Positions 364 through 31,086 of a DNA stretch of 64,000 nucleotides are shown piece by piece. Both the position numbers and the translations under genes were made by a program. The stretch is from a virus: IMG/VR virus record IMGVR_UViG_3300027499_000007; one strand, written 5' to 3'. Below the pieces are notes generated by a model. It had not been told where the DNA came from, made no database searches, and saw nothing but the letters and a program-made list of their open reading frames with translations. Each line of letters begins with the position of its first letter. The first letter of the stretch is position 1.

Positions 364-439
364 GGACCTTTAGCTCAGTAGGTAGAGCAGTAGACTTTTA
401 ATCTATTGGTCCCGGGTTCGAGCCCCGGAGGGTCCACCA
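364..439 (+). tRNA. tRNA-Lys(UUU)
   Basis: Cloverleaf, loop CT-TTT-AA, GTTCGA T-loop, encoded CCA. Confidence 0.97.
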
Positions 440-471
440 AGTTTGTAATTGATATTTGAAGGAAGTGTAAA

Positions 472-774
472 ATGAAAAGTATTGTATTAAACAGTTGGAA
501 TTTCATCTTTGACTATAATAAGAGTCCATTGCGTAATATTCCAGAAGGTAATATCCGACATATGGTCTATCAAATCCTAGGATGGATGTGGGCTATTGCG
601 TTTAGTGTTGCAATTGGAAGTTATACATTTCTTGCAGTAAGTTTGATTGGCCATGCCGTTCTTATCGGCGCCGCGGCTATGACAGTAGCAGTATACACTA
701 CTGCAACCGTGAAACCGGAACTTTTTGTTAAGAAGGCAGGTTGGGGTCGTAGTGTCGACGGTGAGCATATTTAA
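472..774 (+). CDS. hypothetical membrane protein
   Basis: RBS gaagga; two hydrophobic segments. Confidence 0.7.
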   Translation: MKSIVLNSWNFIFDYNKSPLRNIPEGNIRHMVYQILGWMWAIAFSVAIGSYTFLAVSLIGHAVLIGAAAMTVAVYTTATVKPELFVKKAGWGRSVDGEHI

Positions 775-974
775 TGCTTATATTCATAATTGTTCTTACA
801 GCAATTGCGGCAGTACTTACATTGTTTGCATTGCTTAGGGGACTTGTTTCTTTTTCACAAAATCAAACAACTGACTCACGTAACAAGCAAACACAAATGA
901 TGTTTGCACGAGTAAAGTGGCAAGCAATTGCTGTGTTATTGGTAGTAGTTGCTGCCGCTGTTGTAGCTAATTAA
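774..974 (+). CDS. HIG1-like twin-transmembrane small protein
   Basis: Two TM helices joined by QMMFARVKWQA, like the alphaproteobacterial HIG1 family. Confidence 0.65.
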   Translation: MLIFIIVLTAIAAVLTLFALLRGLVSFSQNQTTDSRNKQTQMMFARVKWQAIAVLLVVVAAAVVAN

Positions 975-981
975 AGTTAAC

Positions 982-1057
982 GGACTGTTAACTCAGTTGG
1001 TAGAGTAGCTGACTCTTAATCAGTAAGTCGTAGGTTCGATCCCTACACAGTCCACCA
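982..1057 (+). tRNA. tRNA-Lys(CUU)
   Basis: Cloverleaf, loop CT-CTT-AA, CCA. Confidence 0.97.
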
Positions 1058-1063
1058 GTTTAT

Positions 1064-1115
1064 GGGCCGGCGGTCTAGAACCCGTTGAGCATCGAAAGAT
1101 GTAGTCGGTCCACCA
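1064..1115 (+). ncRNA. 52-nt tRNA-like mini-RNA with Ala-type acceptor (G3.U70, A73, CCA)
   Basis: GGGCCGGC/GTCGGTCC-ACCA stem, two internal hairpins, flanked by the GTTTAT spacer also used between real tRNAs. Confidence 0.7.
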
Positions 1116-1121
1116 GTTTAT

Positions 1122-1267
1122 GTTCCTCCGGTATGGAGCAACCAGCGAGCTCTCAGTGACTCTGCTAGGTGTGGCACAAGGATCTCTCTGGTCACTGTAA
1201 CAGGCTAATGACCTGCTCTGCAAACCTGTCCTTGGTGTACAGTGGTGCAAGTCCACAAGGAACGCCA
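1122..1267 (+). ncRNA. 146-nt tRNA-like RNA with acceptor, T-arm and large insertion
   Basis: GTTCCT/AGGAAC-GCCA acceptor; GTGG-TGCAAGT-CCAC T-arm; internal stems CAGTGAC/GTCACTG and ACAGG/CCTGT. Confidence 0.65.
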
Positions 1268-1279
1268 GTTACCTGGTTA

Positions 1280-1354
1280 GCTCTTGTAGCTCAATGGTAG
1301 AGCTGACCGCTCATAACGGTTAGGTTGGAGGTTCGAATCCTTCCGGGAGCACCA
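1280..1354 (+). tRNA. tRNA-CAU (elongator Met or Ile2, undetermined)
   Basis: Cloverleaf, loop CT-CAT-AA, CCA. Confidence 0.9.
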
Positions 1355-1375
1355 GGTTAGAAAGAGAGAAGAAGT

Positions 1376-1792
1376 ATGTTAGAATGTTTGATTTTAGGCG
1401 ACAGCATTGCAGTTGGTACTAAGATGTTTGCTCCAACGGAATGTGTGTCGTATTCCAAGGGAGGATTTAACTCTTGGCAGTGGAATCAGCGTTGGGGTAT
1501 GAATCCTGTTCAAGCCGATACTGTTGTTATTAGTTTGGGCACCAACGATCACGCAGGTGTTAACACTGAAAAAGAATTACGTAAGATGCGTATGAGAGTC
1601 AAAGCAAAGCGTGTAGTTTGGATTATGCCTCCTTGCAACAAAAGATTTTGTAAGCCTAAGGTAAATGCTATTGTAGAAAGACTCGCACGTGAATACAAAG
1701 ATATTATTGTAAGTACGCCATATGTACAGCCGGATCAGATTCATCCTAGCTGGCGCGGTTACAAGGATTTAGTTAGCAAAGCAAAAATTTAG
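1376..1792 (+). CDS. SGNH/GDSL hydrolase-like protein
   Basis: ILGDS, SLGTND and DQIHP blocks. Confidence 0.8.
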   Translation: MLECLILGDSIAVGTKMFAPTECVSYSKGGFNSWQWNQRWGMNPVQADTVVISLGTNDHAGVNTEKELRKMRMRVKAKRVVWIMPPCNKRFCKPKVNAIVERLAREYKDIIVSTPYVQPDQIHPSWRGYKDLVSKAKI

Positions 1793-1866
1793 CAACGTAG
1801 CTCAGTTGGTAGAGCAGCGGTCTCATACGCCGCCCGTCGGCAGTTCGAGTCTGCCCGTTGCTACCA
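1791..1866 (+). tRNA. tRNA-CAU (undetermined identity, A1-U72)
   Basis: Cloverleaf, loop CT-CAT-AC, CCA. Confidence 0.9.
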
Positions 1867-1872
1867 GTTTAT

Positions 1873-1949
1873 GGTGTCGGTAGCTCAGTTGGTAGAGCCC
1901 CGGTTTGTGGTACCGGTTGTCGCGGGTTCGAATCCCGTCCTTCACCCCA
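1873..1949 (+). tRNA. tRNA-His(GUG) with G-1:C73
   Basis: Loop TT-GTG-GT; extra 5' G opposite C73; CCA; two acceptor mismatches. Confidence 0.9.
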
Positions 1950-1950
1950 G

Positions 1951-2028
1951 CGGCCCTTAGCTCAGTTGGATTAGAGCACACGGCTACGAACCGTGAGGTC
2001 GGGAGTTCGAGTCTCTCAGGGCCGGCCA
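1951..2028 (+). tRNA. tRNA-Arg(ACG)
   Basis: Loop CT-ACG-AA, CCA. Confidence 0.95.
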
Positions 2029-2034
2029 GAATTT

Positions 2035-2110
2035 GCCAAGATAGCTCAGTTGGTAGAGCACGGGACTGAAAATCCCGGTGTCGCCGGTTCGATCCCGGCT
2101 CTTGGTACCA
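2035..2110 (+). tRNA. tRNA-Phe(GAA)
   Basis: Loop CT-GAA-AA, CCA. Confidence 0.97.
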
Positions 2111-2119
2111 TAAGTTTAT

Positions 2120-2193
2120 TGCCTCTTCGTCTAGTGGTAGGACACCGGATTTTGATTCCGGCAGCCGAGGTTCGAATCCTTGAGGGGCAGCCA
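2120..2193 (+). tRNA. tRNA-Gln(UUG)
   Basis: Loop TT-TTG-AT, U1-A72, G73, CCA. Confidence 0.96.
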
Positions 2194-2200
2194 AATTTAA

Positions 2201-2314
2201 AAGATAAGTAAAGAGTTAATAGATTTGTGTGATACATACGGTAAACGTAAGGCAGCAGAAATATTAGGTATAAGTTTAAGTGCTTGCAGAAGTAGGTATC
2301 ACAGATTAAAATAA
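2201..2314 (+). pseudogene. start-less helix-turn-helix remnant
   Basis: Frame reads KISKELIDLCDTYGKRKAAEILGISLSACRSRYHRLK*, bounded by TAA 2198-2200, with no start codon. Confidence 0.55.
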
Positions 2315-2315
2315 T

Positions 2316-2399
2316 GCGGACGTGGTGGAATGGTATACACGATGGTCTTAGAAGCCATTGCCGAAAGGCTTGAGAGTTCGAGTCTCTCCGTCCGCACCA
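2316..2399 (+). tRNA. tRNA-Leu(UAG)
   Basis: Loop CT-TAG-AA, long variable arm, CCA. Confidence 0.96.
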
Positions 2400-2432
2400 A
2401 ATTTAGTTAGTGTCCATGGGCACCAATACAAA

Positions 2433-2524
2433 GGAAGAGTGGCAGAGCCCGGTTTATTGCACCTGACTTGAAATCAGACGTACCTGTGAGGGTACCGTGA
2501 GTTCGAATCTCACCTCTTCCGCCA
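2433..2524 (+). tRNA. tRNA-Ser(UGA)
   Basis: Loop CT-TGA-AA, long variable arm, GCCA. Confidence 0.96.
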
Positions 2525-2529
2525 GATAG

Positions 2530-2558
2530 TTGACAAATAGATAAGTTGATTGTATAAT
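2530..2558 (+). promoter_or_regulatory. sigma70-type promoter
   Basis: TTGACA-17-TATAAT upstream of tRNA-Ser(GCU). Confidence 0.85.
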
Positions 2559-2568
2559 TAACTTATAC

Positions 2569-2660
<92 letters not shown>

Positions 2661-2676
2661 GTTTAGGAAACACCCC

Positions 2677-3114
2677 ATGAGTTACACATTGTTTTTAGAT
2701 GACGAGCGTTCACCTAGTCAAGTAACTTGGGCAGTGTTTCCACGTAACAACCTAAGTATCGTTCGCAATTACGATCAGTTTGTTACACATATTAAGCAAC
2801 ATGGCTTACCAGGTTTTGTGTGTTTCGATCATGATTTAGCTGATGAGCATTATGCGGCAATGCTAAAAGAGAATGAATCATCTGACAATAAATTTACGAT
2901 TTGGATGCCAGGTGATGATCTCTCAGATGGTCTAAACATTACATTTGATTATGGTAATGAAAAGACCGGATATGATTGTGCTAAATGGCTAATTGATTAC
3001 TGTGAAAATAATGGATACAAGTTTCCGCAGTTTGTAGTGCATAGCATGAATCCTGCAGGTAAAGTACGTATTGAGCAGTACATAGCTAATGCCCAAAAAC
3101 ATTTAAATATCTGA
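2677..3114 (+). CDS. cyclic-phosphate-processing receiver-domain (cREC-like) protein
   Basis: LFLDDER, FDHDL, TGYDCAKWL and VHSMNP motifs. Confidence 0.75.
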   Translation: MSYTLFLDDERSPSQVTWAVFPRNNLSIVRNYDQFVTHIKQHGLPGFVCFDHDLADEHYAAMLKENESSDNKFTIWMPGDDLSDGLNITFDYGNEKTGYDCAKWLIDYCENNGYKFPQFVVHSMNPAGKVRIEQYIANAQKHLNI

Positions 3115-3117
3115 TGG

Positions 3118-3180
3118 TTGACAAGCAGTTTAAAGGCTGTATAATTGTTAACAAGTAAGCAGTAAACGTTCTTTAAAAAT
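3118..3180 (+). promoter_or_regulatory. sigma70 promoter followed by boxA-like element
   Basis: TTGACA-16-TATAAT, then CGTTCTTTAAAAAT at 3167-3180. Confidence 0.75.
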
Positions 3181-3181
3181 T

Positions 3182-3270
3182 GATAAGGGAAACTAGCGGC
3201 TATTAGGCCCTGCAATTCGCCCGGGTACTCCGCGCTTAGTTTTAAACGACAGCATTTTGTATCCCTTATC
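3182..3270 (+). ncRNA. candidate structured RNA/leader
   Basis: Closing stem GATAAGGG/CCCTTATC plus inner AACTAGCG/CGCTTAGTT-like pairing; no ORF. Confidence 0.4.
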
Positions 3271-3284
3271 GTTCATTTATTTAC

Positions 3285-3360
3285 GCACCATTCGTCTATC
3301 GGTTTAGGACAACGCCCTTTCACGGCGTAAAGAGGGGTTCGATTCCCCTATGGTGTACCA
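3285..3360 (+). tRNA. tRNA-Glu(UUC)
   Basis: Loop CT-TTC-AC, CCA. Confidence 0.96.
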
Positions 3361-3364
3361 AGAC

Positions 3365-3592
3365 GTTCCGGCTAATAACCGGATAGTGTGGTCCGCATAA
3401 TAAGAAGTAGAGTTATTACTACAGGACCTTACCATTTGGTGCAAATGGCGCTGGCTATGCGAGAATCCTTCCTGGTCGAGCAGCGGGTGGAGTCGTGCGT
3501 GATGCATAGAATCCCCAACCTTAGTTGAGTTGGAACAAGGATTAATCTATGTTGATGCGATATAATGAACCGCCGCAGGAAGGAAGCACCCT
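3365..3592 (+). ncRNA. candidate structured ncRNA between tRNA-Glu and tRNA-Tyr
   Basis: Stems CCTTCCTG/CAGGAAGG, TCCGG/CCGGA and CCATTT/AAATGG; no + strand ORF. Confidence 0.5.
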
Positions 3593-3597
3593 ATTAA

Positions 3598-3683
3598 GGA
3601 CAGGTGGGTGAGTGGTTAATACCAGCAGACTGTAAATCTGCCGCCTCCGGGCTACGCTAGTTCGAATCTAGCCCTGTCCACCA
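3598..3683 (+). tRNA. tRNA-Tyr(GUA)
   Basis: Loop CT-GTA-AA, long variable arm, CCA. Confidence 0.96.
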
Positions 3684-3693
3684 GGAATATAAA

Positions 3694-4217
3694 ATGAAAT
3701 ATCACAAATACACTAATTTTATTACAGCTGAAGATTGTGATGAGCTTGCGTCTTGGATAGTTAAAAATCAAAACTCAAAATATTTCCTAGACGCATATCA
3801 TCCTGGTGCAATAAGAAAAACAACTCGTTTTAGTAATGATGTTGTTTATCCTAAAACCGCATACAGAGTTCAAGAAAATATTGACAATGTTGTAAAAGAT
3901 TTATTCAAGTTGGACACTGTAAAACGAGTTCAGTCTTTTCCTAATGGAATGTATGCATCAATTGGTACTCCTGGTGACTGTTGTGAGGAGCACGTGGATC
4001 CTAGATATCTAGCAAATCATTATACATATCATTTCAATGTTATACTTAGTGATTATGAAAATGCGGATCTTTTCGTTGATAGACATCTAGTAACATTATC
4101 AAAATTAGACGGAATATTATACCCGGTTAGTGAATTATTACATTATACAACTAAGTTAACAAATACTAATTCTAGACTTTTTTGGTGTTTTGGATATTGC
4201 ATTCCTATTAAAAATGC

Positions 4218-4227
<10 letters not shown>
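3694..4227 (+). CDS. 2OG-Fe(II) oxygenase-like protein
   Basis: HVD...H...R pattern; stop codon lies inside the downstream tRNA. Confidence 0.6.
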
Positions 4228-4296
<69 letters not shown>

Positions 4297-4304
4297 TATG
4301 TAGT

Positions 4305-4525
4305 TTTGGAATACCCCGCTTTACACTTTGAGCGCTACCGAAAGTGGGCGATTGTCGCTGCCATACAGACACGGTAAGATTGTTATTGACCGCAAGGCCC
4401 GCTTTACATGGGCGACTTGAGACACACAGTCGGGCAGAAGCTAAACTGACCTAGATGCAAATATAGACGGACAGGGTAACAACTCAGTTTGGGGCTCAAA
4501 TGGGTAGAGTAGCCGAACACTTACG
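4305..4525 (+). ncRNA. candidate structured ncRNA with tandem duplicated module
   Basis: CCCGCTTTACA...TGGGCGA occurs twice (4315, 4398); several hairpins; no ORF. Confidence 0.5.
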
Positions 4526-4533
4526 AATTTAAT

Positions 4534-4610
4534 GGCCTGGTAGCTCAGTTGGTTAGAGCATCCGCCTGTCACGCGGAAGGCCGAGGGTTCAAGTCCCTTC
4601 CAGGTCGCCA
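4534..4610 (+). tRNA. tRNA-Asp(GUC)
   Basis: Loop CT-GTC-AC, GCCA. Confidence 0.97.
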
Positions 4611-4629
4611 ATTTAAATTCTTGCGTTAG

Positions 4630-4658
4630 TTGACATACCTAAGATTATATAGTAAAAT
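4630..4658 (+). promoter_or_regulatory. sigma70-type promoter
   Basis: TTGACA-17-TAAAAT. Confidence 0.75.
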
Positions 4659-4682
4659 ATAATTTTAGACGCAGGGAGGCAC

Positions 4683-5801
4683 ATGTCTAAACGTGAGATA
4701 ACTGTAGAGAAATTTAAAAACAAATTTGCAGACGTCATTCGCCATACCAGAATGGAACCGGTGGAGATTGTTGTTGCACTAGAGAAAATGGATCCTACCA
4801 AGAACTTGCAGTATGTTCCTTGGTTGGCCAAGCAATTAATTAACAACCAATTTAAGTTTGAAGACACAGCTCGTGTTAAGACTGTGCTAGAAAACTTCGA
4901 CAAGCTAAAACCTCGTTTGGAAAAGCGAGACATTAACCAATTTAGTTTTTACGAACTAGATGAGACTATTGACCGGATTCTTAATCCTGAGATTAAGGAA
5001 GTACTGGTAACTAAAACAGTAAAAGAAAAAGGTGCCTTTCCAATTATTAAAGGCACTAAGATATTGTACAATGGTCCCTTTGGACAGTTAGCAAGCCCGC
5101 AAACAGCCGCGGCAGCAAGACATTTAGGTGCAGGTACAAAGTGGTGTACCACTAATGCTGACACCTTTAAAATGTATAAAAATGATGGCGAGCTGTATGT
5201 TTGGCGAGACCGCAATGGTAGCAAGTACCAATACCAAATTAGAAATAACTATGCTGGCAGAATTGTAATAATGGATGCCAGAGACAGGGCTATAAATTTT
5301 TTAGAGCAAGAGAAATTTGAACAGCATCCTATTATTGGTAAAATTCTAAAACAGCAGGACCAACTGTATAGAGAATACCTAACTAAGCAACAGGAAGCAC
5401 AACGTGAGCACGACAGAATCTATGACATGGTCAAATATGTTTTGGATACTACAGGCATTAACGTTAAGCACGTTAAAAAGATTAAGAGCTATCCAGGAGG
5501 CCTAACAGGCTTCTGTAAGGACGTAATGGATAAGAAATGGGACCTAGTAGAACCTCAGATGGCATTGGGTCCGCGCAGTAGCCAAGAATACGCTATGTTT
5601 ATTAAGAAGGCAAGATGGCCGGAGCAGGAGTCTTTAATTGCAACACATGCAGTAAGCTGGACAATGTACAGCAGAGAGATCCTTGGTACAAATAACAGAA
5701 CTAGCGAAGGTCGTAAGGCACGAGATAAGATGCGTAGAGAAGCATTAAAGACAGTTGGTCTCAAACTTACTGCTAAAATGAAAAAGCTACCTTCATGGTG
5801 A
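4683..5801 (+). CDS. conserved-looking large-phage hypothetical protein
   Basis: 372 aa, RBS ggagg; DPTKNLQYVPWL and GTKWCTT motifs; function unknown. Confidence 0.8.
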   Translation: MSKREITVEKFKNKFADVIRHTRMEPVEIVVALEKMDPTKNLQYVPWLAKQLINNQFKFEDTARVKTVLENFDKLKPRLEKRDINQFSFYELDETIDRILNPEIKEVLVTKTVKEKGAFPIIKGTKILYNGPFGQLASPQTAAAARHLGAGTKWCTTNADTFKMYKNDGELYVWRDRNGSKYQYQIRNNYAGRIVIMDARDRAINFLEQEKFEQHPIIGKILKQQDQLYREYLTKQQEAQREHDRIYDMVKYVLDTTGINVKHVKKIKSYPGGLTGFCKDVMDKKWDLVEPQMALGPRSSQEYAMFIKKARWPEQESLIATHAVSWTMYSREILGTNNRTSEGRKARDKMRREALKTVGLKLTAKMKKLPSW

Positions 5802-5805
5802 TAAC

Positions 5806-6630
5806 ATGGCAACAAAGAAAACACAAACGCAAACTAAGATAGACTTAGACCTTAATAACATTTTTAAGGCTAAGGCAGATCAACCTGTTGCCAAACATAC
5901 CAAAGCTAAAGCAAAGCCCGAAGCTGAGCCTAAGGCTAAGCCTACGCAAAAAATTAAAACAGCTAGCTTTGCTAAGACATTGGATGCCACTAGCAAAATT
6001 AGACCTACACAGGCTATGCTAGACATGATGGATAGGATTCTAGACATAGAGCTAGATGCAGACCTGCCCAGCTATGAGGCCAGTTGTCAGGTAGAAGTTA
6101 GAACTGTGCAAGTGCCAATTGAGCGAGAAATCTTTGGTGGTGTAGAGCCCCAACCTCCAGACTTGGTACCCGCTGTTAAAGTTAATACTACAACATTGGC
6201 TACTGTAGCAGAACATGCGCTACGCAAAGCAGGTTACCTAGTGCCAGACTTCCATCAGGTAGCGGCACTGCCTGGTAACATTAAAGACCAGATTAGACAG
6301 TTAGGTCGTAGCTTGTTTAAGTCTATGACTACTACGCCTACTAACAAGATATATGTAGTAGCTAACTTGGGCGGTATGGGTCCTAACACTAATAGGGAAG
6401 TACAAAGTGTTGCCAATTGGATTAGAGAGAACGGTGAGGACTACGGTGATGGCACCATAGACTTTGACAGGTCTATTCCTGGCTACACAGCAGAAACGTA
6501 CATGTATACAGCTTCAGGCATAACTTGGTTGCTGGTCAATGACTTTGCAGGACAGTACATATATGCTTGGCCAGAGCAAGACAGTTTGTTTAAAATTGCT
6601 GTATCTAAAATAGCATATAAAAACACTTGA
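5806..6630 (+). CDS. hypothetical protein, Lys/Ala/Pro-rich N-terminus
   Basis: 274-aa ORF in tandem with neighbours. Confidence 0.8.
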   Translation: MATKKTQTQTKIDLDLNNIFKAKADQPVAKHTKAKAKPEAEPKAKPTQKIKTASFAKTLDATSKIRPTQAMLDMMDRILDIELDADLPSYEASCQVEVRTVQVPIEREIFGGVEPQPPDLVPAVKVNTTTLATVAEHALRKAGYLVPDFHQVAALPGNIKDQIRQLGRSLFKSMTTTPTNKIYVVANLGGMGPNTNREVQSVANWIRENGEDYGDGTIDFDRSIPGYTAETYMYTASGITWLLVNDFAGQYIYAWPEQDSLFKIAVSKIAYKNT

Positions 6631-6681
6631 CAACTATGGTGTAGTAGTGTATAGTTAAAACTTGAACTAGAGAGAACAGCA

Positions 6682-6942
6682 ATGACTGACCGAGAAATTA
6701 AAATTGTATTTCAACCTGGCTGCTTCGATGACTTTGAAGGCAGTCAAGAAGAGTTGGACAACCTAGTTAAGGAAATTCAAGACATGGTCGCAGATGGATC
6801 ATTGTTTGAAAATTCTACATTCTTAACTGAAGATGACTTGGACGATCTTCCACCAGAAGTACTTGCATCTATTGCAAGAGACTTGGAAATCATTGAAGAT
6901 ATAGACAGCGTAGAAGAAATAAGAAATCGCAAATTAAATTAA
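6682..6942 (+). CDS. acidic hypothetical protein
   Basis: 86 aa, very Asp/Glu-rich. Confidence 0.7.
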   Translation: MTDREIKIVFQPGCFDDFEGSQEELDNLVKEIQDMVADGSLFENSTFLTEDDLDDLPPEVLASIARDLEIIEDIDSVEEIRNRKLN

Positions 6943-6950
6943 AAAAGTAG

Positions 6951-7018
6951 TTGACAAACATTTTAATTCGTGTATAATGATAACATAAGCTAAGAAATTA
7001 GCAACGTTCTTTGAAAAG
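6951..7018 (+). promoter_or_regulatory. sigma70 promoter plus boxA-like element
   Basis: TTGACA-16-TATAAT; CGTTCTTTGAAAAG at 7005-7018. Confidence 0.8.
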
Positions 7019-7024
7019 TAAAAA

Positions 7025-7872
7025 TTGGGCGGCATAACGTCCTTAGGGTAACTACAGCAATGTAGCCAAAGCAGGAAAGCCTACGCACCTGCGCTCGCAA
7101 GAGTCCATTTATGCAAGCCTGGGTCAGGGTTGACTCGCCGTAAGGCGAAAGCAACCCTCGTCACTGTAATGGTTGGCGATAGGCAGTAAGTGAGTGATAT
7201 AAGTCCGAAAGGATACGAACAGAGCCAGTCGGTGAGTTCTAATAGGCTGTGGTGGTCTAGCTGTATCGAACCAAACTCGCGAATGCTGATGATCAACAGG
7301 TAGGTATAGGGTTCGACTGTTCGCGCAGAAGGGCTGAGTACTAGTTTGATAGTTGAACCGATGAGGGGAGACTTGAAAAACCGTTGAGTAGCCCGCAAGG
7401 CAAAAGGCATGAGGTGTGTTGTATTCTGTATCTAACAAGGTATGGAGCAACTGGATCAGCACATCTTGGTAGGTTCGCAAATTGCCTAATGGTAAGGCAA
7501 CAGTCTCTTAAACTGTCGAATCTGGGTTCAATTCCCAGTTTGTATAACAAAAGCGAAAGACTGATCCGGTATGTTGTGAAAGGTGCTTAATACCTGACAC
7601 GCAAGTGAATTGGGTTCACAGAAGCTCGCAAGGCAGAAGTGATTGTTCGGATAGAAGACGTAGACTGTTAGCGCAGTCGAATAGCTCGCAAGGCTAGCGG
7701 AAGATAGATGGACGAATAGCAACATACGACGAGAGAAACGCCACTCTCCAAAAAAGGCAGCACTGAGTGTTACTAGGATAGTCGCAAGGCACCTAGTGGA
7801 TAACGGCTCAACCTTCCTCGCAAGGGACAGGGTACAAGTCAAAGACACTCGTTCAAAGCTGTAATCTCAGGC
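7025..7872 (+). ncRNA. GOLLD-like giant structured RNA
   Basis: About 850 nt, no credible ORF, many GCAA/GAAA-capped hairpins, long-range pair 7117-7123/7866-7872; size, tRNA-island context and embedded tRNA match GOLLD (family call not verified by search). Confidence 0.75.
7475..7546 (+). tRNA. degenerate tRNA-Lys(CUU) embedded in the giant RNA, no CCA
   Basis: D-arm GCCT/AGGC, anticodon arm ACAGT-CTCTTAA-ACTGT, T-arm CTGGG-TTCAATT-CCCAG; only 5-bp acceptor. Confidence 0.8.
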
Positions 7873-7882
7873 TTGGTTAGAT

Positions 7883-8140
7883 GACTTATTAGATGAACAC
7901 ACTGCCCGTCACTAAGCGGGAGGTTCATGAACCCAGTGTGTTCTTCTAATAAGTTTTGGCAGTATGCTAGCAATAGTAAACTGCCCGGAGTTGGGGAAGA
8001 GACGAGAACCAACACACCTGTATGTTTTATACATACTCCGTACAGCAAAAGAGCTTGAAACTCTTGTTGCTTGTGTGCTCTAGTCCTTTCGATTAAGAAC
8101 AACTTTGTGTTTTGTTGACTAGACATAAACGAGCCTTTGT
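7883..8140 (+). ncRNA. candidate structured RNA downstream of the GOLLD-like RNA
   Basis: Two perfect 10-bp helices (7884-7893/7945-7954; 7895-7904/7934-7943) capped by two hairpins, then further stems. Confidence 0.5.
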
Positions 8141-8260
8141 GCATTGTTCTTATGCGGCTTGTTTGTAGGGTTTCCGAAATGGATCCCGGTGTTTATTGTT
8201 AAGTTGGCAACTCACTTTCCCTCTCCGTTTCTATTATGGCAAAACAAAAGGAATAGGCAA

Positions 8261-8827
8261 ATGAACATTACACTACGCAAGGCATCAGCCCTACAAAACT
8301 CAATCAACGAAACACTCAAAGGTCTCGAAGTAACCTCTACTGTTACAGTAGATGAGTTCCAGAACGCAGGTTCTGTAATCGCAGCCAAACGCGACGAAGT
8401 CACTAAGACTATTGTACGCAAGACATCACTGCTAGACGTGCTGTACGCTGTTCGTAAGGGTGTAGCGATTGCTAACGCGGCTGCTGGCATCACAGAGTTA
8501 CTAGCAGACGTAGCACAGCTGGAAAAGCGTATTCAGCTACAAAGTCAGCTAGCCGGCGCAACAGTTCAGCTAGAACCTGCTGTGCTAGATGGGCGTCTAA
8601 ATCGTCTACGTGAGCAGACTGGCGAGACACGTCTGTACCGTTCCACCAGCGGTGTTGAAACTGGTGTGTTCACTGAAGAAGAGGTTAGCAGAGCTAAGGC
8701 AAACCTAGCCGATCTTAAGAAGCTCAAGCAGACTCTACAGGATCGCTTGCTAGAACTTAATGTAAGCACAACAATTAATCTTAGCGAAAAGTCAGTAATC
8801 GTGCTACAGCAAGAAGGTCTTGTATAA
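8261..8827 (+). CDS. coiled-coil hypothetical protein
   Basis: Start MNITLRKA behind RBS; helical heptad character. Confidence 0.8.
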   Translation: MNITLRKASALQNSINETLKGLEVTSTVTVDEFQNAGSVIAAKRDEVTKTIVRKTSLLDVLYAVRKGVAIANAAAGITELLADVAQLEKRIQLQSQLAGATVQLEPAVLDGRLNRLREQTGETRLYRSTSGVETGVFTEEEVSRAKANLADLKKLKQTLQDRLLELNVSTTINLSEKSVIVLQQEGLV

Positions 8828-8836
8828 GTAAATTAT

Positions 8837-8912
8837 CGCGGGATAGAGCAGTCGGCAGCTCGTTAGCCTCATAAGCTAAAGGTCGGAGGTTCAAATCCTT
8901 CTCCCGCAACCA
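8837..8912 (+). tRNA. initiator-like tRNA-fMet(CAU) with atypical anticodon stem
   Basis: C1.A72 mismatch and CGCGGG...CCCGCAACCA as in fMet; stem TTAGC/GCTAA lacks the three G-C pairs. Confidence 0.88.
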
Positions 8913-9110
8913 AATGCGAAAGCCCTCTACACCCATAGACCGAGTGATCACGGTAGGTAACATATGGTGATAGTGCATCAACTGCGAGGGACTAGGGGTG
9001 GAGATATAACCCTGGATTAGGTGGGAGCCCTAAAACTTTTTATGTGCCCGGTTATTGCAAAGATAGCTAATTTTGGTAGACCAATACTAAATACTAGTGG
9101 AGGCCTACCT

Positions 9111-9530
9111 ATGAAAGTATATAATTGTTTAGAATGTGGTGCTGAGTGCAAGTGGGGTCATAGCAAGACTAATAAGTTTTGCAACAATACATGTCAAGCA
9201 GCATATAAATGGAAAAATGAAACAGTGCCGCGCATTGAGAGCGGAACAAGATCTGACCCTTCCACGCTTAAGAAGTATTTTGTTGAAAAGAGGGGCAATG
9301 ATTGCGAAGAGTGCGGCCAAGGTCCAATTTGGAATGGTAAGCCACTGATTTTACAACTAGATCACATAGATGGAAACAGTGACGACAATAGACCTTCTAA
9401 CATTAGATTATTGTGTCCATCTTGTCATTCGCAAACCGATACCTTCGCTGCTAAGGGTCAAGGTTCAAGATATTTGAAAAAAAATACAAAACGTAATAAG
9501 TATCTACAGCAATATAAAACGGGAGATTAG
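9111..9530 (+). CDS. HNH endonuclease
   Basis: RBS GGAGG; CEECG, LDHIDGNSDDN, LLCPSCHSQT. Confidence 0.9.
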   Translation: MKVYNCLECGAECKWGHSKTNKFCNNTCQAAYKWKNETVPRIESGTRSDPSTLKKYFVEKRGNDCEECGQGPIWNGKPLILQLDHIDGNSDDNRPSNIRLLCPSCHSQTDTFAAKGQGSRYLKKNTKRNKYLQQYKTGD

Positions 9531-9595
9531 CTCAGGGGTAGAGCGCCTGCTTTACACGCAGGATGTCCGGGGTTCGAAACCCTGATCTCCCACCA
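9521..9595 (+). tRNA. tRNA-Val(UAC)
   Basis: Loop TT-TAC-AC, CCA. Confidence 0.96.
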
Positions 9596-9607
9596 TTTCT
9601 TAATATT

Positions 9608-9781
9608 ATGAAGAAAACTTATCTAGTAGAAGACTTGTTTAGTGATATACAAGACGATCCTGATCACGTGCTATTAACTTTTCCACCTGAAGTTATCGAA
9701 AGCACAGGATGGAAACCAGGCGACACACTTAATATTGAAGTTAAAGACGGTTGCATATATATTAACAGGGTAGATGAATAA
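9608..9781 (+). CDS. AbrB/MazE/SpoVT-like small protein
   Basis: LTFPPEVIESTGWKPGDTLNIEV pattern. Confidence 0.6.
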   Translation: MKKTYLVEDLFSDIQDDPDHVLLTFPPEVIESTGWKPGDTLNIEVKDGCIYINRVDE

Positions 9782-9789
9782 ATAGTTTT

Positions 9790-9854
9790 ATCAGTTGTTG
9801 ACAGCTGACAATAAAAGCGGCAAGACCCCGGGGCAGTACCGGGCAGGTCCACCA
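9790..9854 (+). ncRNA. ssrA: tmRNA acceptor piece (permuted two-piece gene)
   Basis: T-arm CCCGG-GGCAGTA-CCGGG then CAGGTCC-ACCA; late promoter ATAAATA 9778-9784; 5' end approximate. Confidence 0.9.
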
Positions 9855-9867
9855 TAAGGAAATTGCT

Positions 9868-10068
9868 ATGACCCAAGACGAAGAGCGTTTGTATTGGAGA
9901 GGCTATCATTTTCCAGGTACGCTCTCCGACGAGGAGTTAGCGGAATGGCATAAGATAGTTGACAAGCACCACGGAAGAGATATTCCTAGCGAAAGCGAAC
10001 AGGAATATTGGGGTCGTGCGCTACTTGCATTTGCTATCGTGCTTGTGCTAGTAGCAGTTTTTTTATGA
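9868..10068 (+). CDS. 66-aa tail-anchored membrane protein inside the tmRNA intervening segment
   Basis: RBS AAGGA; C-terminal hydrophobic helix; fills the gap between the tmRNA pieces. Confidence 0.7.
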   Translation: MTQDEERLYWRGYHFPGTLSDEELAEWHKIVDKHHGRDIPSESEQEYWGRALLAFAIVLVLVAVFL

Positions 10069-10069
10069 T

Positions 10070-10230
10070 GGGCCTGACATAGGATCGATTGACGTGGAAT
10101 AGGAATGCCGAGACTGATTGACTGGCAAAGTGCCAAACAAAGTAACTGCAAACGATAACTTTGCATATGAGGAACTTGCCCTAGCGGCATGATTCTTCGG
10201 GGTAGGAAATACCTAGCAACAGAAAACACC
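10070..10230 (+). ncRNA. ssrA: tmRNA coding piece, tag ANDNFAYEELALAA
   Basis: 5' GGGCCTG pairs with CAGGTCC (G3.U70); tag frame 10148-10192 ends in TGA. Confidence 0.92.
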
Positions 10231-10259
10231 AATAGGAGCCTTCGGGCTCCTATTTTTTT
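10231..10259 (+). terminator. rho-independent terminator
   Basis: AATAGGAGCC-TTCG-GGCTCCTATT plus T run. Confidence 0.92.
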
Positions 10260-10357
10260 GACTAAAATTTGCCACTTTATTTGCTGATAATGTTGTAGAG
10301 CAATAAATACATATAGAGTGTTTTACGATATGCTCTACTGCACACAAAGAGGACACT

Positions 10358-10705
10358 ATGAACGCTTGCTTTACCTGTCTAAACTGTGGTAAGAATAACC
10401 CAGTTAAAGGACACAGTTATACTAACAAATACTGTAACAACAGTTGCCAACAGCAACATCGCAGTAGGTCGTTAGTTAACGAATGGAAACAGCATCCTGA
10501 AACTACAGCGTGGAGACAGGTACCTGAATGGGTTAAGAAATATCTCATTGAGGCCAGAGGTCATAGTTGTCAAGTCTGTGGCAGTAGAACGCATAACGGA
10601 AAGGAAATACCATTAGCGATTGATTATGCTGATGGCAATACTCACAACAGTGCCGAGGAAAACCTGGTACTGATCTGTCCAAATTGTAAGGCACAGAAAC
10701 ATTAA
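10358..10705 (+). CDS. degenerate HNH-family, Cys-rich protein
   Basis: CLNC, CQVCG and ICPNC kept; DHIDG motif altered to DYADG; late promoter at 10303. Confidence 0.75.
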   Translation: MNACFTCLNCGKNNPVKGHSYTNKYCNNSCQQQHRSRSLVNEWKQHPETTAWRQVPEWVKKYLIEARGHSCQVCGSRTHNGKEIPLAIDYADGNTHNSAEENLVLICPNCKAQKH

Positions 10706-10716
10706 GGAGAAACTAA

Positions 10717-11262
10717 ATGAAAACAGTTGGTGATAAAATTGAAACTTTTGCAGTAACAGGTGTTAAGCCAGGCGCACTAACACCAGATGGTGCTTTTGAG
10801 ACCATCACAGAAAAGAGCTTTGAAGGTAAATGGAAGGTAATTGTGTTCTATCCAAAGGACTTTACTTTTGTTTGCCCAACAGAAATCGTAGCCTACGACA
10901 AGCTCAACAACGACTTTGCTGATCGCGATGCGGTACTATTAGTTGGCAGCACAGACAATGAGTTCTGTAAGCTAGCTTGGCGTGCAGCTCATGAGGATCT
11001 AAAGAAAACAAACAGTTGGATGTTTGCTGACGTTGCTCGTGACGAACTAAGTCTTGCTGATCAGCTAGGCATCTTCTATGCACCAGCTGGCGCCGCACTT
11101 CGTGCTACATTCGTTGTTGACCCAGACAACGTTATCCAGCACGTTACTGTTAACAACCTAGACGTTGGTCGTAGCCCAGAAGAAACACTTCGTATACTAG
11201 ATGCATTACAGACTGGCGAACTATGCCCATGCAGTCGTCCTATTGGTGGTGACACATTATGA
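10717..11262 (+). CDS. ahpC: alkyl hydroperoxide reductase C (peroxiredoxin)
   Basis: FYPKDFTFVCPTE and GELCPC. Confidence 0.95.
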   Translation: MKTVGDKIETFAVTGVKPGALTPDGAFETITEKSFEGKWKVIVFYPKDFTFVCPTEIVAYDKLNNDFADRDAVLLVGSTDNEFCKLAWRAAHEDLKKTNSWMFADVARDELSLADQLGIFYAPAGAALRATFVVDPDNVIQHVTVNNLDVGRSPEETLRILDALQTGELCPCSRPIGGDTL

Positions 11263-11768
11263 ATTGGCTAGAAGGGTTCAAGGCAGCATTGCCTGACTAT
11301 GCCAAGGACACTAGACTAAACTTGGATGGAGTTCTACTACGTTCAAGTTTAGATCCAGTTGTTGCAGAAGGATGTGCATTAGCTGCCGCAGTTGCCACAG
11401 GCAATGGAAAGATTGTTGGCATTATTTTAGGTGGCATGGCCAACGAGCAAGAGCGTAATGCAGCAATGACAGCCGCTAGCATCATGGCTCAAAACAACAT
11501 TTGGTACCCATACAACGAAATGGTAGATGACGCATTCAAAGGCATGAGCCCTGGACTACGTATGAATGCTATTGCTACACATGGCGGCACGTCAAAGGAA
11601 AACTTTGAAGCATACAGTCTAGCAGCCAGCATTGTGGGCAAGTGTCACTTCTGTGTAAAGAGTCATTTCAATACACTAAAGGAAGCTGGTTACAGCTTAG
11701 ATCAGCTTAAAGACATTGGCCGTATCGCTAGCGTTATGAACAGTGTTTGTAAGGTTCTAGTAGGTTAA
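11259..11768 (+). CDS. ahpD: alkyl hydroperoxide reductase D
   Basis: SIVGKCHFCVKSH CxxC motif; coupled to ahpC. Confidence 0.9.
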   Translation: MNWLEGFKAALPDYAKDTRLNLDGVLLRSSLDPVVAEGCALAAAVATGNGKIVGIILGGMANEQERNAAMTAASIMAQNNIWYPYNEMVDDAFKGMSPGLRMNAIATHGGTSKENFEAYSLAASIVGKCHFCVKSHFNTLKEAGYSLDQLKDIGRIASVMNSVCKVLVG

Positions 11769-16731: not shown

Positions 16732-17222
16732 AGGAAGTTATAGTTGAGGTTCCTATTGAGAAGGTTGTTGAAAAGCCTGTCGAAATTATAAAAGAAGTGG
16801 AAGTTATCCGAGAAGTACTTGGACCAGAGAGAATTGTTCAGGTAGAAGTTCCAGTAGTTCGCGAAGACACTGCTAAGATAGAACAACTAAGTAAAGACAA
16901 CGCAGCATTAAAAGGTAGAATACGATACTTAGAAAAAGAAGTTAGTGTTCAGCCTAAAATTATAGAAAAAATTGTAGAAGTAGAAAAAGAAGTTCCTGTA
17001 GAAGTTGAGCGTGCTGCTACAAAAGATTTGCGAGAAGCAGCTAGGTTAATGGCCAGGAGTGTGCTAAATAAAGAGGACTTAACAGAAGAAGAAATCTTTG
17101 GTTTATTACAAAAGGCTTCGGAAGCTGATGTCAAGAAGCGATTAGGTTTTTGGGCAGTACCATTACCTAAAAGCGGTGATCAAACAGACACAACAAACAA
17201 ACGATACATAGGTAAGAAATGA
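16629..17222 (+). CDS. frameshifted continuation of 15640 ORF (V/E/K-rich repeats)
   Basis: -1 frame open from 16629 across the A9 run 16652-16660; reads KKISELQKEVARLKKE...EVVKEVIVEVP. Confidence 0.7.
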   Translation, partial: LRRRNNSPKKKISELQKEVARLKKENNSKPKEVVKEVIVEVPIEKVVEKPVEIIKEVEVIREVLGPERIVQVEVPVVREDTAKIEQLSKDNAALKGRIRYLEKEVSVQPKIIEKIVEVEKEVPVEVERAATKDLREAARLMARSVLNKEDLTEEEIFGLLQKASEADVKKRLGFWAVPLPKSGDQTDTTNKRYIGKK

Positions 17223-18505
17223 CCGAAAAGAAAAATTTAAGCTGTAGCTTTTGTGGTAAGAATCGCGAAGCTGTAGACAAATTAATCGCTGGCCCAAGCG
17301 TTTATATTTGCAATGAATGTATTACACTCAGTTACAATATTATTGTTAATGAGAAACCGGTCAAAGATGATGATGAGCTTTCATTAGAAAATTTGCCCCA
17401 GCCACTAGAAATAAAACAATTTCTAGATGAATATATAGTTGGGCACGAAAACGCTAAAGAACTGTTTGCTGTTAGTGCATATAATCATTATAAAAGAATC
17501 TTTTACCCCGAACAAGACGAAATTGAACTAGAAAAGTCAAACATACTTCTAGTTGGTCCTACCGGTACAGGCAAGACATTGTTTGCTAAAACACTTGCTA
17601 AAAAATTAAATGTACCATTTGCTATTGCAGATGCTACTACGCTCACTGAAGCAGGCTACGTAGGTGATGACGTAGAGAGTGTTATCGAGCGTTTGCTTAC
17701 ACTAGCAGATTATGATATCGACTTAGCTCAGCGTGGCATCGTTTATATTGATGAAGTAGATAAAAAAGCTAGACGCAGCGAATCAAATGTTGCTACTCGT
17801 GATGTGAGCGGCGAAGGCGTACAGCAAGCATTGCTTAGACTTGTTGAAGGAACAAATATCAAGGTTAAACTTGGTAACAGTAAAAAGTTCAGCGACGACT
17901 ACATCGAGTTCGATACATCAAACGTACTGTTTATCTTAGGCGGAGCGTTTGTTGGTGTTGATAAGACCATTGAGAAGCGTCTTAAAAAATCTAGCACAAT
18001 TGGTTTTAACGCAACAGTTATTGATGCAGATTCTAAAAATAATCTATTGTCAAAACTATTACCAGAAGATGTAATTGACTATGGCTTAATACCTGAACTA
18101 GTTGGCAGACTTCCGATTCTAATCTCGCTTGAGAATCTAACAGAATCTCAATTAAAACAAGTTCTAACAGTTAAGAATAACTCAGTCGACCAAGTTAAAA
18201 CATTGTTGGCTATTGATAAATTAGAATTAGAATTCACAGAAAAGTTTTATAGTGATGTTGCTAAAATTGCTATAAAACAAAAACTTGGAGCTCGTAGCGT
18301 AAAGAGTATTGTAGAATATAGTGTAATGAATATTATGTACAGGGCACCAGAGCTCCAAAAAAGTGGAGTGACTAAGATAGTGTTTGATAACTATCCTATA
18401 TCACTCGACAAGGTGCCCACGCTAGTCTACAGTGATGGAAAGAATCACAAAGATACAGAGTATAAGATCTACAGAGGATTAAATGAAAAAGCAACATTGG
18501 AATAA
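17219..18505 (+). CDS. clpX: ATP-dependent Clp protease ATPase subunit ClpX
   Basis: CSFC..C4 zinc finger, GPTGTGKT, GYVG, DEVDK, RDVSGEGVQQALL, IGF loop. Confidence 0.97.
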   Translation: MTEKKNLSCSFCGKNREAVDKLIAGPSVYICNECITLSYNIIVNEKPVKDDDELSLENLPQPLEIKQFLDEYIVGHENAKELFAVSAYNHYKRIFYPEQDEIELEKSNILLVGPTGTGKTLFAKTLAKKLNVPFAIADATTLTEAGYVGDDVESVIERLLTLADYDIDLAQRGIVYIDEVDKKARRSESNVATRDVSGEGVQQALLRLVEGTNIKVKLGNSKKFSDDYIEFDTSNVLFILGGAFVGVDKTIEKRLKKSSTIGFNATVIDADSKNNLLSKLLPEDVIDYGLIPELVGRLPILISLENLTESQLKQVLTVKNNSVDQVKTLLAIDKLELEFTEKFYSDVAKIAIKQKLGARSVKSIVEYSVMNIMYRAPELQKSGVTKIVFDNYPISLDKVPTLVYSDGKNHKDTEYKIYRGLNEKATLE

Positions 18506-29874: not shown

Positions 29875-31086
29875 GTGATCGGCAACTTTTTTAGCCTCGA
29901 AGAATTTCCGACGCTAAAAAACAATCCTAATTTAGTCTATTTAGACAATGCGGCAACTACTCAGACACATCGCTGGGTAGTTGATCGCATGAATACCTAT
30001 TACAATTATAACCGTGCTACAAGTCACAGAGGTGATTATCCTTTGTCGCATCTAGTTACTGATGACTATGTTACTGCTCGCAGTCAAGTAGCAAGCCTCA
30101 TAAATGTAGAAGCTGATAAGGTTATGTTTACATCAGGTGCTACACAAGGTCTAAACTATGTAGCTGAATGGTGTAAAGATGTGCCTGTCGTTATCATTTC
30201 CGGAGCAGAACATAGTTCAAATATTCTTCCTTGGCTAGCACAAGGCCGCAGTATTGATAATGGCAGACTAAAAGTTATTCCTATCAAAGCCTACACTGAT
30301 GGCAGTCAAGGCTTTGACCTAGAAGTAGCACAGAAGATTATCGAACAGCACCCTGAATCGGTACTTAGTATTACTACTACCTCTAACGCAACAGGGTTTG
30401 ATACAGAATGGCATACATTGCTCGACATGGCTCATGCTGTAGGTACAAGGGTATGCTTAGATATAACACAGAGCGTTGCACACAAACAAATTGACTTGAC
30501 TAAGTATTCGGCTGAATGGGCAGTGTTCAGCGCACATAAGATGTATGGTCCTACAGGTGTAGGTGCGCTATATTGTCGCTTTGGTTTTGAAAACATGAGA
30601 CCTTTGCAATATGGCGGCGGCCAAATTGATCACTTAGATTTTAATAGTGCGCTATTTAAAAATTCAATTGAACGTATGGAGCCCGGTACACAAAATATTG
30701 CAGGCATATTAGGGTTCGGTGTGGCAGCAGAATTTATTAACTATGTTACCTATGATGAAATTAGACTTATCGAACTCAACTTATATGAACATTTTATTAG
30801 TAATAAAGATATCAACAGCCTTGATGAACTTGATAGACTATTCTCACAGAAAGACGTAACTAATATCTTTAGCTTTAGAAGCAACAAGTATAGTCCCTAC
30901 GACCTAGCAACTATATTAGGAAGTAAAGGTATTGCAGTGAGATCGGGGAGAGTATGCGCTCATCCCTTTGTAAACAATCTAAGCAACAATGGCATACTTA
31001 GAATTAGCCTAGCACCTTATAATACCGTAGAAGAAATTGAATTACTAGGTTCAAAACTAAGCGAAGCAATAAACTTACTCAAATAA
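29875..31086 (+). CDS. sufS: SufS-type cysteine desulfurase
   Basis: YLDNAATTQ, FSAHKMYGPTG, RSGRVCAHP. Confidence 0.9.
   Translation: MIGNFFSLEEFPTLKNNPNLVYLDNAATTQTHRWVVDRMNTYYNYNRATSHRGDYPLSHLVTDDYVTARSQVASLINVEADKVMFTSGATQGLNYVAEWCKDVPVVIISGAEHSSNILPWLAQGRSIDNGRLKVIPIKAYTDGSQGFDLEVAQKIIEQHPESVLSITTTSNATGFDTEWHTLLDMAHAVGTRVCLDITQSVAHKQIDLTKYSAEWAVFSAHKMYGPTGVGALYCRFGFENMRPLQYGGGQIDHLDFNSALFKNSIERMEPGTQNIAGILGFGVAAEFINYVTYDEIRLIELNLYEHFISNKDINSLDELDRLFSQKDVTNIFSFRSNKYSPYDLATILGSKGIAVRSGRVCAHPFVNNLSNNGILRISLAPYNTVEEIELLGSKLSEAINLLK

Follow-up and report, generated by a model that had tools for sequence, protein, structure and literature searches.

The tmRNA is a textbook stable RNA, and in the Alphaproteobacteria it is encoded by circularly permuted two-piece genes (Keiler, Shapiro and Williams 2000, as cited in PMC9004378), an arrangement also carried by marine phages such as Melnitz (PMC9004378). 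The spacer of the permuted form, the intervening segment (IVS), has been treated as disposable. Among unusual IVSs, the 2025 tmRNA database report (PMC11915505) describes one that houses an intact tRNA-Ala gene and another with a repetitive element, and it places homing-endonuclease genes in group I introns that interrupt the tmRNA T-loop. In another stable RNA, the 23S rRNA of Coxiella burnetii, an IVS excised by RNase III carries an S23p ORF that appears untranslated and decaying (PMC4990558).

Here, the spacer of a phage tmRNA gene is itself a selected protein gene. The window, that is, the whole stretch of 64,000 nucleotides analysed, carries at approximately 9793-10233 a phage-encoded tmRNA gene that, judged by sequence, looks functional and is of the circularly permuted, two-piece alphaproteobacterial type. 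It shares with the alphaproteobacterial and Melnitz genes the order acceptor piece, IVS and coding piece, the elements G3.U70, A73 and CCA, an ANDN...LAA tag and scores above gathering on both RF01849 and RF04321. It differs from the alphaproteobacterial genes in that its IVS is 215 nt long, coding and selected, whereas the bacterial IVSs sampled are non-coding, with a median of 29 nt. T4-type phage tRNA arrays have small ORFs interspersed between their tRNAs, and there too small protein genes share a transcript with stable RNAs, from which RNase P and 3' processing release them; the window's gene, in contrast, lies between two halves of one RNA, which must pair across it.

The other known systems compare as follows. 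The unusual IVSs of PMC11915505 likewise indicate that a permuted-tmRNA IVS tolerates foreign inserts, but no protein-coding IVS is mentioned in the part available, and the cargo of the window is a translated-type gene with its Shine-Dalgarno sequence and stop built into the closing stem. The group I introns also place within the tmRNA gene a protein gene that is removed from the mature RNA; the window has neither intron nor endonuclease there, and removal would be by end-processing of a permuted gene and not by splicing. The nearest analogue of the layout is the S23p ORF in the Coxiella IVS (PMC4990558), again an ORF in a stem-closed segment excised from a stable-RNA precursor. The window's ORF differs from it in being under strong purifying selection and encoding an unrelated protein, and tRNA-type processing is expected. 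A literature search returned no paper describing protein-coding tmRNA spacers.

A permuted tmRNA gene and the gene within it

At 9762-10283 ARAGORN reports a tmRNA, labelled 'Permuted', whose tag reads ANDNFAYEELALAA followed by a stop, and Rfam places the locus above gathering for both alpha_tmRNA (RF01849, 88.8 bits; gathering 50) and tmRNA_permuted (RF04321, 87.5 bits; gathering 47), so that the two checks proposed with the original prediction agree with it. The acceptor piece, the 3' tRNA-like half, occupies 9793-9854 on the plus strand, as delimited by the two Rfam alignments, the ARAGORN 3' tRNA domain and the sequence itself, and contains a T-arm analogue, CAGGUCC (9844-9850), the discriminator A9851 and an encoded CCA (9852-9854). 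The coding piece (10070-10233, plus strand; ARAGORN and Rfam) comprises the acceptor 5' strand GGGCCUG (10070-10076), a D-loop analogue and the tag reading frame at 10148-10192, which encodes ANDNFAYEELALAA from a GCA resume codon to a hydrophobic ...LAA degron end. GGGCCUG pairs with CAGGUCC to form the acceptor stem, and the alanine identity elements G3.U70, A73 and CCA are all present. The predicted junctions, CCA ending at 9854 and the coding piece starting at 10070, are exact by ARAGORN, Rfam and acceptor pairing alike. A strong intrinsic terminator (10231-10254, plus strand) follows, with a 10-bp stem holding five GC pairs and then TTTTTT.

Between the two pieces lies the IVS (9855-10069, plus strand; 215 nt), which separates the ARAGORN tRNA domains, is an insertion relative to both Rfam models and, we infer, is removed from the precursor at maturation. 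It consists of a 13-nt Shine-Dalgarno leader, a 66-codon ORF at 9868-10068 on the plus strand and one further base. The Shine-Dalgarno AAGGA sits 7 nt upstream of the ATG, and the TGA ends 1 nt ahead of G10070; the coordinates originally given for this filled gap, a ribosome-binding site and a 66-aa ORF ending one base before the coding piece, hold to the nucleotide. A group I intron with a homing endonuclease was considered and excluded, as the Rfam scan finds no intron family at the tmRNA and the insert lies between CCA and G1, outside the T-loop.

A search of 5.8 billion proteins returned homologues in eight clusters of 76-95% identity, all of 64-66 aa, and at each of the 12 loci fetched (12/12) the ORF occupies the same position inside a permuted tmRNA. 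Across 10 distinct DNA versions the variable sites at codon positions 1, 2 and 3 number 21, 10 and 47; pairwise Nei-Gojobori dN/dS lies at 0.05-0.24, with dS often above 1 and synonymous sites near saturation. The AAGGA, its 7-nt spacing, the ATG and the TGA are invariant in nine sequences. The conservation and dN/dS checks thus bear out the original prediction, and on this substitution pattern the ORF is a real gene under purifying selection, far beyond what chance would give. At these loci the mature tmRNA pieces show 85-100% identity; with the ORF under selection, the RNA halves and the ORF are both constrained, in different ways. ARAGORN missed six of the 12 loci of the window's clade, including those with an IVS of 296 nt. 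In the latter (L012 1400-1696, identical to L013 397-693) a variant of the window's tmRNA holds two genes in its IVS, a 23-aa hydrophobic mini-ORF (MDEVVKWLFG...) with a Shine-Dalgarno sequence in the stem head and, downstream, a 64-aa homologue of the 66-aa protein with a Shine-Dalgarno sequence of its own. Such overlaps matter for annotation, since one of the two features will be masked or missed by tmRNA finders and the other by gene callers.

The protein is predicted to be a small tail-anchored membrane protein. AlphaFold, run on a shallow family alignment, models helices at 3-14, 21-34 and 44-65 (mean pLDDT 81), the C-terminal helix at pLDDT 85-91 and ending in the hydrophobic residues 51-66, ALLAFAIVLVLVAVFL. 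This helix, proposed at the outset as a transmembrane helix, is conserved in the family. The two YW(R/G)G repeats proposed alongside it fare less well: the family keeps only the first motif, LYW(R/K)GxxFPGTL, present here as LYWRGxHFPGTL in the N-terminal helical part, and of the second only the juxtamembrane Trp is conserved family-wide. The 66-aa protein matches no Pfam family at E <= 1 and nothing among the PHROGs below E = 0.15; features in the ESM Atlas score at most 0.86, all in unnamed clusters, and the best Foldseek hit among viral structures has E = 0.42. Identity with the S23p ORF was rejected on the Pfam and PHROG results.

A profile search of 1.84 billion representatives added ten more distant homologues of 64-72 aa, which share LYW(R/K)GxxFPGTL...E..W and the C-terminal helix. 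At the protein level the homologues reach down to 31-47% identity, some of them in other genomic contexts. One of 39% identity (P0013) lies again inside a near-identical tmRNA; those of types P0009, P0011 and P0016 are free-standing genes, two of them on IMG/VR viral contigs, and no tmRNA was found nearby at the free-standing loci L254, L255, L256, L258 and L261. The 66-aa protein therefore needs no surrounding tmRNA gene. Free-standing homologues (L254 463-1943; L261 2177-3642) adjoin Fe-SOD, overlapping the start of its gene, and lie near NifU/IscU: in L261 the P0009-type gene overlaps the start of an ORF matching the Fe-superoxide dismutase gene of L254, and an ORF at the IscU/NifU position lies downstream of this Fe-SOD-type ORF. 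In the window itself the tmRNA is closely followed by genes for AhpC (peroxiredoxin) and an AhpD/CMD-family protein (10717-11768), and a class-V aminotransferase (IscS-like) lies at 29875-31086. Hence the family may be tied to an oxidative-stress or Fe-S module (Fe-SOD, NifU/IscU, AhpC, AhpD, IscS-like). At L258, a 31-aa hydrophobic mini-ORF overlaps the start of the free-standing homologue; given the mini-ORF of L012 and L013, the two-gene cassette of hydrophobic mini-ORF and homologue may be ancestral.

The closing stem and the spacer as a slot for genes

The two ends of the IVS pair with each other. The 5' arm UAAGGAAAUUGC (9855-9866, plus strand), which includes the Shine-Dalgarno AAGGA at 9856-9860, pairs with the 3' arm GCAGUUUUUUUA (10054-10065, plus strand), which also serves as codons 63-66 (A V F L), in a stem of 12 bp, three of them G.U. 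In the minimum free energy fold the stem grows to 15 bp and stacks on the acceptor stem. The AUG and UGA of the ORF abut the stem, and the IVS as a whole forms a stem-closed rod that folds better than shuffled sequence (z = -3.35). Nine sequences agree at every nucleotide of the 13-nt leader and of the stretch from codon 63 through the stop to the final U, and with these at both arms; synonymous positions outside the last four codons vary freely. In the more divergent L257, G.U has become G-C and U.G has become C-G, which are one-sided compensating changes, and the C-terminus reads VSL in place of VFL. The ribosome-binding site and the stop codon of the ORF are thus part of what appears to be a processing stem.

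The ORF stop is the UGA of UGAU (10066-10069, plus strand), a 5' leader before the predicted RNase P site. Among the matches listed, UGAU stands directly before G1 in 72 of 97 viral IVSs, coding and non-coding. A closing stem in the window's register, with four unpaired 3' nucleotides, is also common, the mean run being 5.66 bp for the viral IVSs among the matches listed, against at most 1.95 bp in shifted registers. A stem of at least 6 bp closes 32 of 73 distinct viral IVSs, with 21 different head 8-mers (again among the matches listed), and the window's Shine-Dalgarno UAAGGA is a variant of the usual viral stem head UAAGCA or UAAACA. The stop falls one base before the coding piece because the UGA belongs to a pre-existing UGAU precursor leader. 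On these comparisons, the tight fit of ORF to IVS is explained by the structure of the precursor and needs no special link to trans-translation.

How phages and bacteria use this position was surveyed with our own mapper, which relies on acceptor-stem complementarity, requires a perfect 7-bp acceptor stem and was used instead of ARAGORN. The viral sample, drawn from contigs with an alpha-type acceptor motif, comprises at least 97 mapped genes outside the window's clade; the bacterial sample, found by the same motif and mostly alphaproteobacterial, comprises at least 111. Each of the two samples started from at least 120 loci. Among the matches listed, the viral IVSs (97 genes) have a median of 54 nt and a maximum of 264 nt; 16 reach 120 nt or more, and 12 of these 16 contain a Shine-Dalgarno-led ATG ORF. 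The viral ORFs, of 32-77 aa, fall into at least eight unrelated families, and the three with several members show dN/dS values of 0.20-0.24, 0.07 and 0.0, a sign of purifying selection. A 100-nt IVS (L098) encodes a 21-aa hydrophobic peptide. The IVSs of the 111 bacterial genes among the matches listed reach at most 139 nt, with a median of 29 nt, and contain no ORF above 21 aa, as anticipated by the original prediction that the bacterial spacer is usually short and non-coding.

The survey of phage IVS lengths and ORFs that had been suggested thus finds a position holding at least eight unrelated families of small ORFs, and on the best reading phages use the IVS over and over as a cassette slot for small genes of unrelated kinds, with none in the bacterial genes sampled. 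Reuse of the tmRNA spacer in this way adds a new kind of gene slot to phage genomes. The ORF of L036 (8591-8755 and beyond; 57 aa, basic) is peculiar in that its frame bypasses the stop in UGAU and continues for about 30 nt within the tmRNA coding piece. It crosses the predicted RNase P site and would therefore be left without a stop codon after cleavage.

Comparison of close relatives suggests that the cassettes are exchanged. L042 and L110 have mature pieces 97-100% identical, and the former has a 204-nt IVS with a 62-aa ORF, whereas the latter has a 29-nt hairpin without an ORF. L112 and L036 (mature pieces 93-94% identical) carry different ORFs. Conversely, L021 and L042 share a homologous ORF in IVSs 78% identical, with coding pieces only 67% identical and tags that differ. 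The window and L005 are 99-100% identical in the mature pieces and only 82% in the IVS, and in one RNA-library contig (record 19) mature pieces that differ from those of the window by 1 and 3 mismatches flank a 66-nt replacement IVS. In the aligned sequences, then, the presence, absence or identity of the ORF differs between near-identical tmRNAs. In a tree of the mature pieces, whose resolution is low because only 200 nt were used, ORF-bearing genes are scattered among short-IVS relatives. The conserved tmRNA halves could act as homology arms for cassette swapping between phages.

Expression of the cassette and its relation to trans-translation

Overall, the explanation that we consider likely is a permuted tmRNA in which the loop of the IVS has been replaced by a small protein gene, the slot serving mainly for expression. 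The promoter scan finds none inside the IVS, and no conserved internal promoter; the terminator scan finds none after the acceptor piece or the ORF, and none before 10231. A weak sigma-70-like site lies upstream of the tmRNA at 9735-9763. Contigs assembled from RNA libraries, which carry no read ends or strand and may include DNA carry-over, cross the CCA/IVS junction (X15 record 7, X17 record 18, X18 record 26) and the IVS/G1 junction (X17 record 20). From the scans and the junction-bridging contigs together, we infer that the ORF is co-transcribed with the tmRNA on one precursor.

In such a scheme, the precursor would end at the terminator (10231-10254) and start upstream, from a promoter at the 9735-9763 site or by read-through of the tRNA array. 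RNase P would cut before G10070 and 3' processing would stop at the CCA (9854), and the 215-nt RNA so released would be little more than an mRNA. The release of a 'mini-mRNA' by tmRNA maturation is, to judge from this layout, plausible. Ribosomes could translate the ORF while the precursor is still growing, ahead of synthesis of the 3' arm of the closing stem some 200 nt further on, or could use the excised 215-nt RNA. Once formed, the closing stem would mask the Shine-Dalgarno sequence and limit translation, and a ribosome sitting on the start or the end of the ORF would stand in the way of the acceptor stem; hence, translation and tmRNA folding should exclude each other on any one molecule. 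The locus would therefore offer a natural case of competition, within one molecule, between translation and the folding and processing of a stable RNA. The function of the 66-aa protein itself would not be tied to trans-translation.

The original prediction went further and proposed that the protein is coupled to trans-translation; on a functional reading of this, it would be made in step with the tmRNA and would act in, or be controlled by, the tmRNA/ClpXP pathway. The phage does encode a ClpX (17219-18505; zf-C4_ClpX and AAA_2), which together with the ...ALAA tag of the tmRNA suggests a phage-owned tag-and-degrade route, and the ORF stops 1 nt from the predicted RNase P cut. Moreover, none of the 10 versions in the window's clade has lost the ORF, nor has the 39%-identity branch, a persistence that leaves room for some benefit tied to location; the ORF could profit from its place in the tmRNA gene. 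Coupling of function nevertheless has several points against it. Homologues stand free beside Fe-SOD and NifU without a tmRNA, unrelated ORFs occupy the same slot elsewhere, close and even near-identical tmRNA relatives have no ORF or a different one, and the position of the stop is explained by a UGAU leader that non-coding spacers have as well. Taken together, we regard functional coupling as unlikely, and the reading of the IVS as an expression slot is retained.

A particular form of coupling would arise if the RNase P-excised mRNA, with its stop 1 nt from the 3' end in a weak A-U/G.U panhandle, became non-stop after the loss of 2-3 nt, the product then being tagged by its own tmRNA and degraded by the phage ClpXP. 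We think this quite improbable. If true, it would provide a built-in, self-limiting pulse of membrane protein, and the L036 ORF would yield a non-stop message every time its precursor is cut at the predicted RNase P site.

It is very unlikely that the two tmRNA pieces come from separate transcripts, with the ORF an ordinary gene between two RNA genes, which the original prediction had named as an outcome that would count against it. The ORF does contain a TTGACA hexamer (9959-9964), but as an internal promoter this was rejected, having no acceptable -10 partner and not being conserved, because codon 31 is GTT or GTA. The promoter scan is blank inside the IVS, there is no terminator after the acceptor piece or the ORF, the closing stem ties both IVS ends straight to the acceptor stem, and the RNA-library contigs bridge both junctions, all of which fits one precursor. 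That the open frame is untranslated, its conservation reflecting a spacer RNA structure needed for processing, is the reading to which we give least credence: the IVS fold (z = -3.35 against shuffled sequence) and the invariant IVS ends would suit it, but the substitutions concentrate at third positions (47 against 21 and 10; dN/dS 0.05-0.24), the interior is free at synonymous sites to a degree that an RNA structure would forbid, the Shine-Dalgarno and ATG are conserved, and homologues are recognisable at the protein level down to 31-47% identity, some in other contexts.

Genomic setting

The window comes from an IMG/VR viral record of 80.6 kb with a CheckV completeness of 21%, which at that length points to a very large phage. 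Its DNA is contained in runs from freshwater, riverine and subsurface metagenomes, and the region 9700-10300 has no blastn match among GenBank phages. SmpB (PF01668) was not found in the 80.6-kb record, which is rated 21% complete; the tmRNA may have the SmpB of the host as its partner.

The tmRNA follows a tRNA array, with 18 tRNA genes in 364-9595 and small ORFs between tRNAs. Within this array lies a GOLLD RNA (7411-7873; RF02032, 187.5 bits), inside which a tRNA-Lys(CUU) gene is nested at 7474-7548. Two HNH-endonuclease ORFs (9021-9530 and 10358-10705), with Pfam HNH E-values of 1.8e-5 (above the cut-off) and 3.9e-4 (just under it), flank the unit of tRNA-Val and tmRNA and are probably free-standing homing endonucleases. 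A 72-aa ORF (9563-9781) with a weak match to SpoVT-AbrB (AbrB/MazE-antitoxin-like) and a match to PHROG 661 separates tRNA-Val from the tmRNA, its stop about 10 nt before the 5' region of the latter.

Metatranscriptome contigs at 9500-9600 (tRNA-Val) match at 85-90% and represent the tRNAs of many other organisms, so that depth over this interval is uninformative on the phage of the window. Finally, a related phage contig (L002) has a COG2908 RNA motif (RF02939, 70 bits) at 4151-4195, directly after tRNA-Thr.
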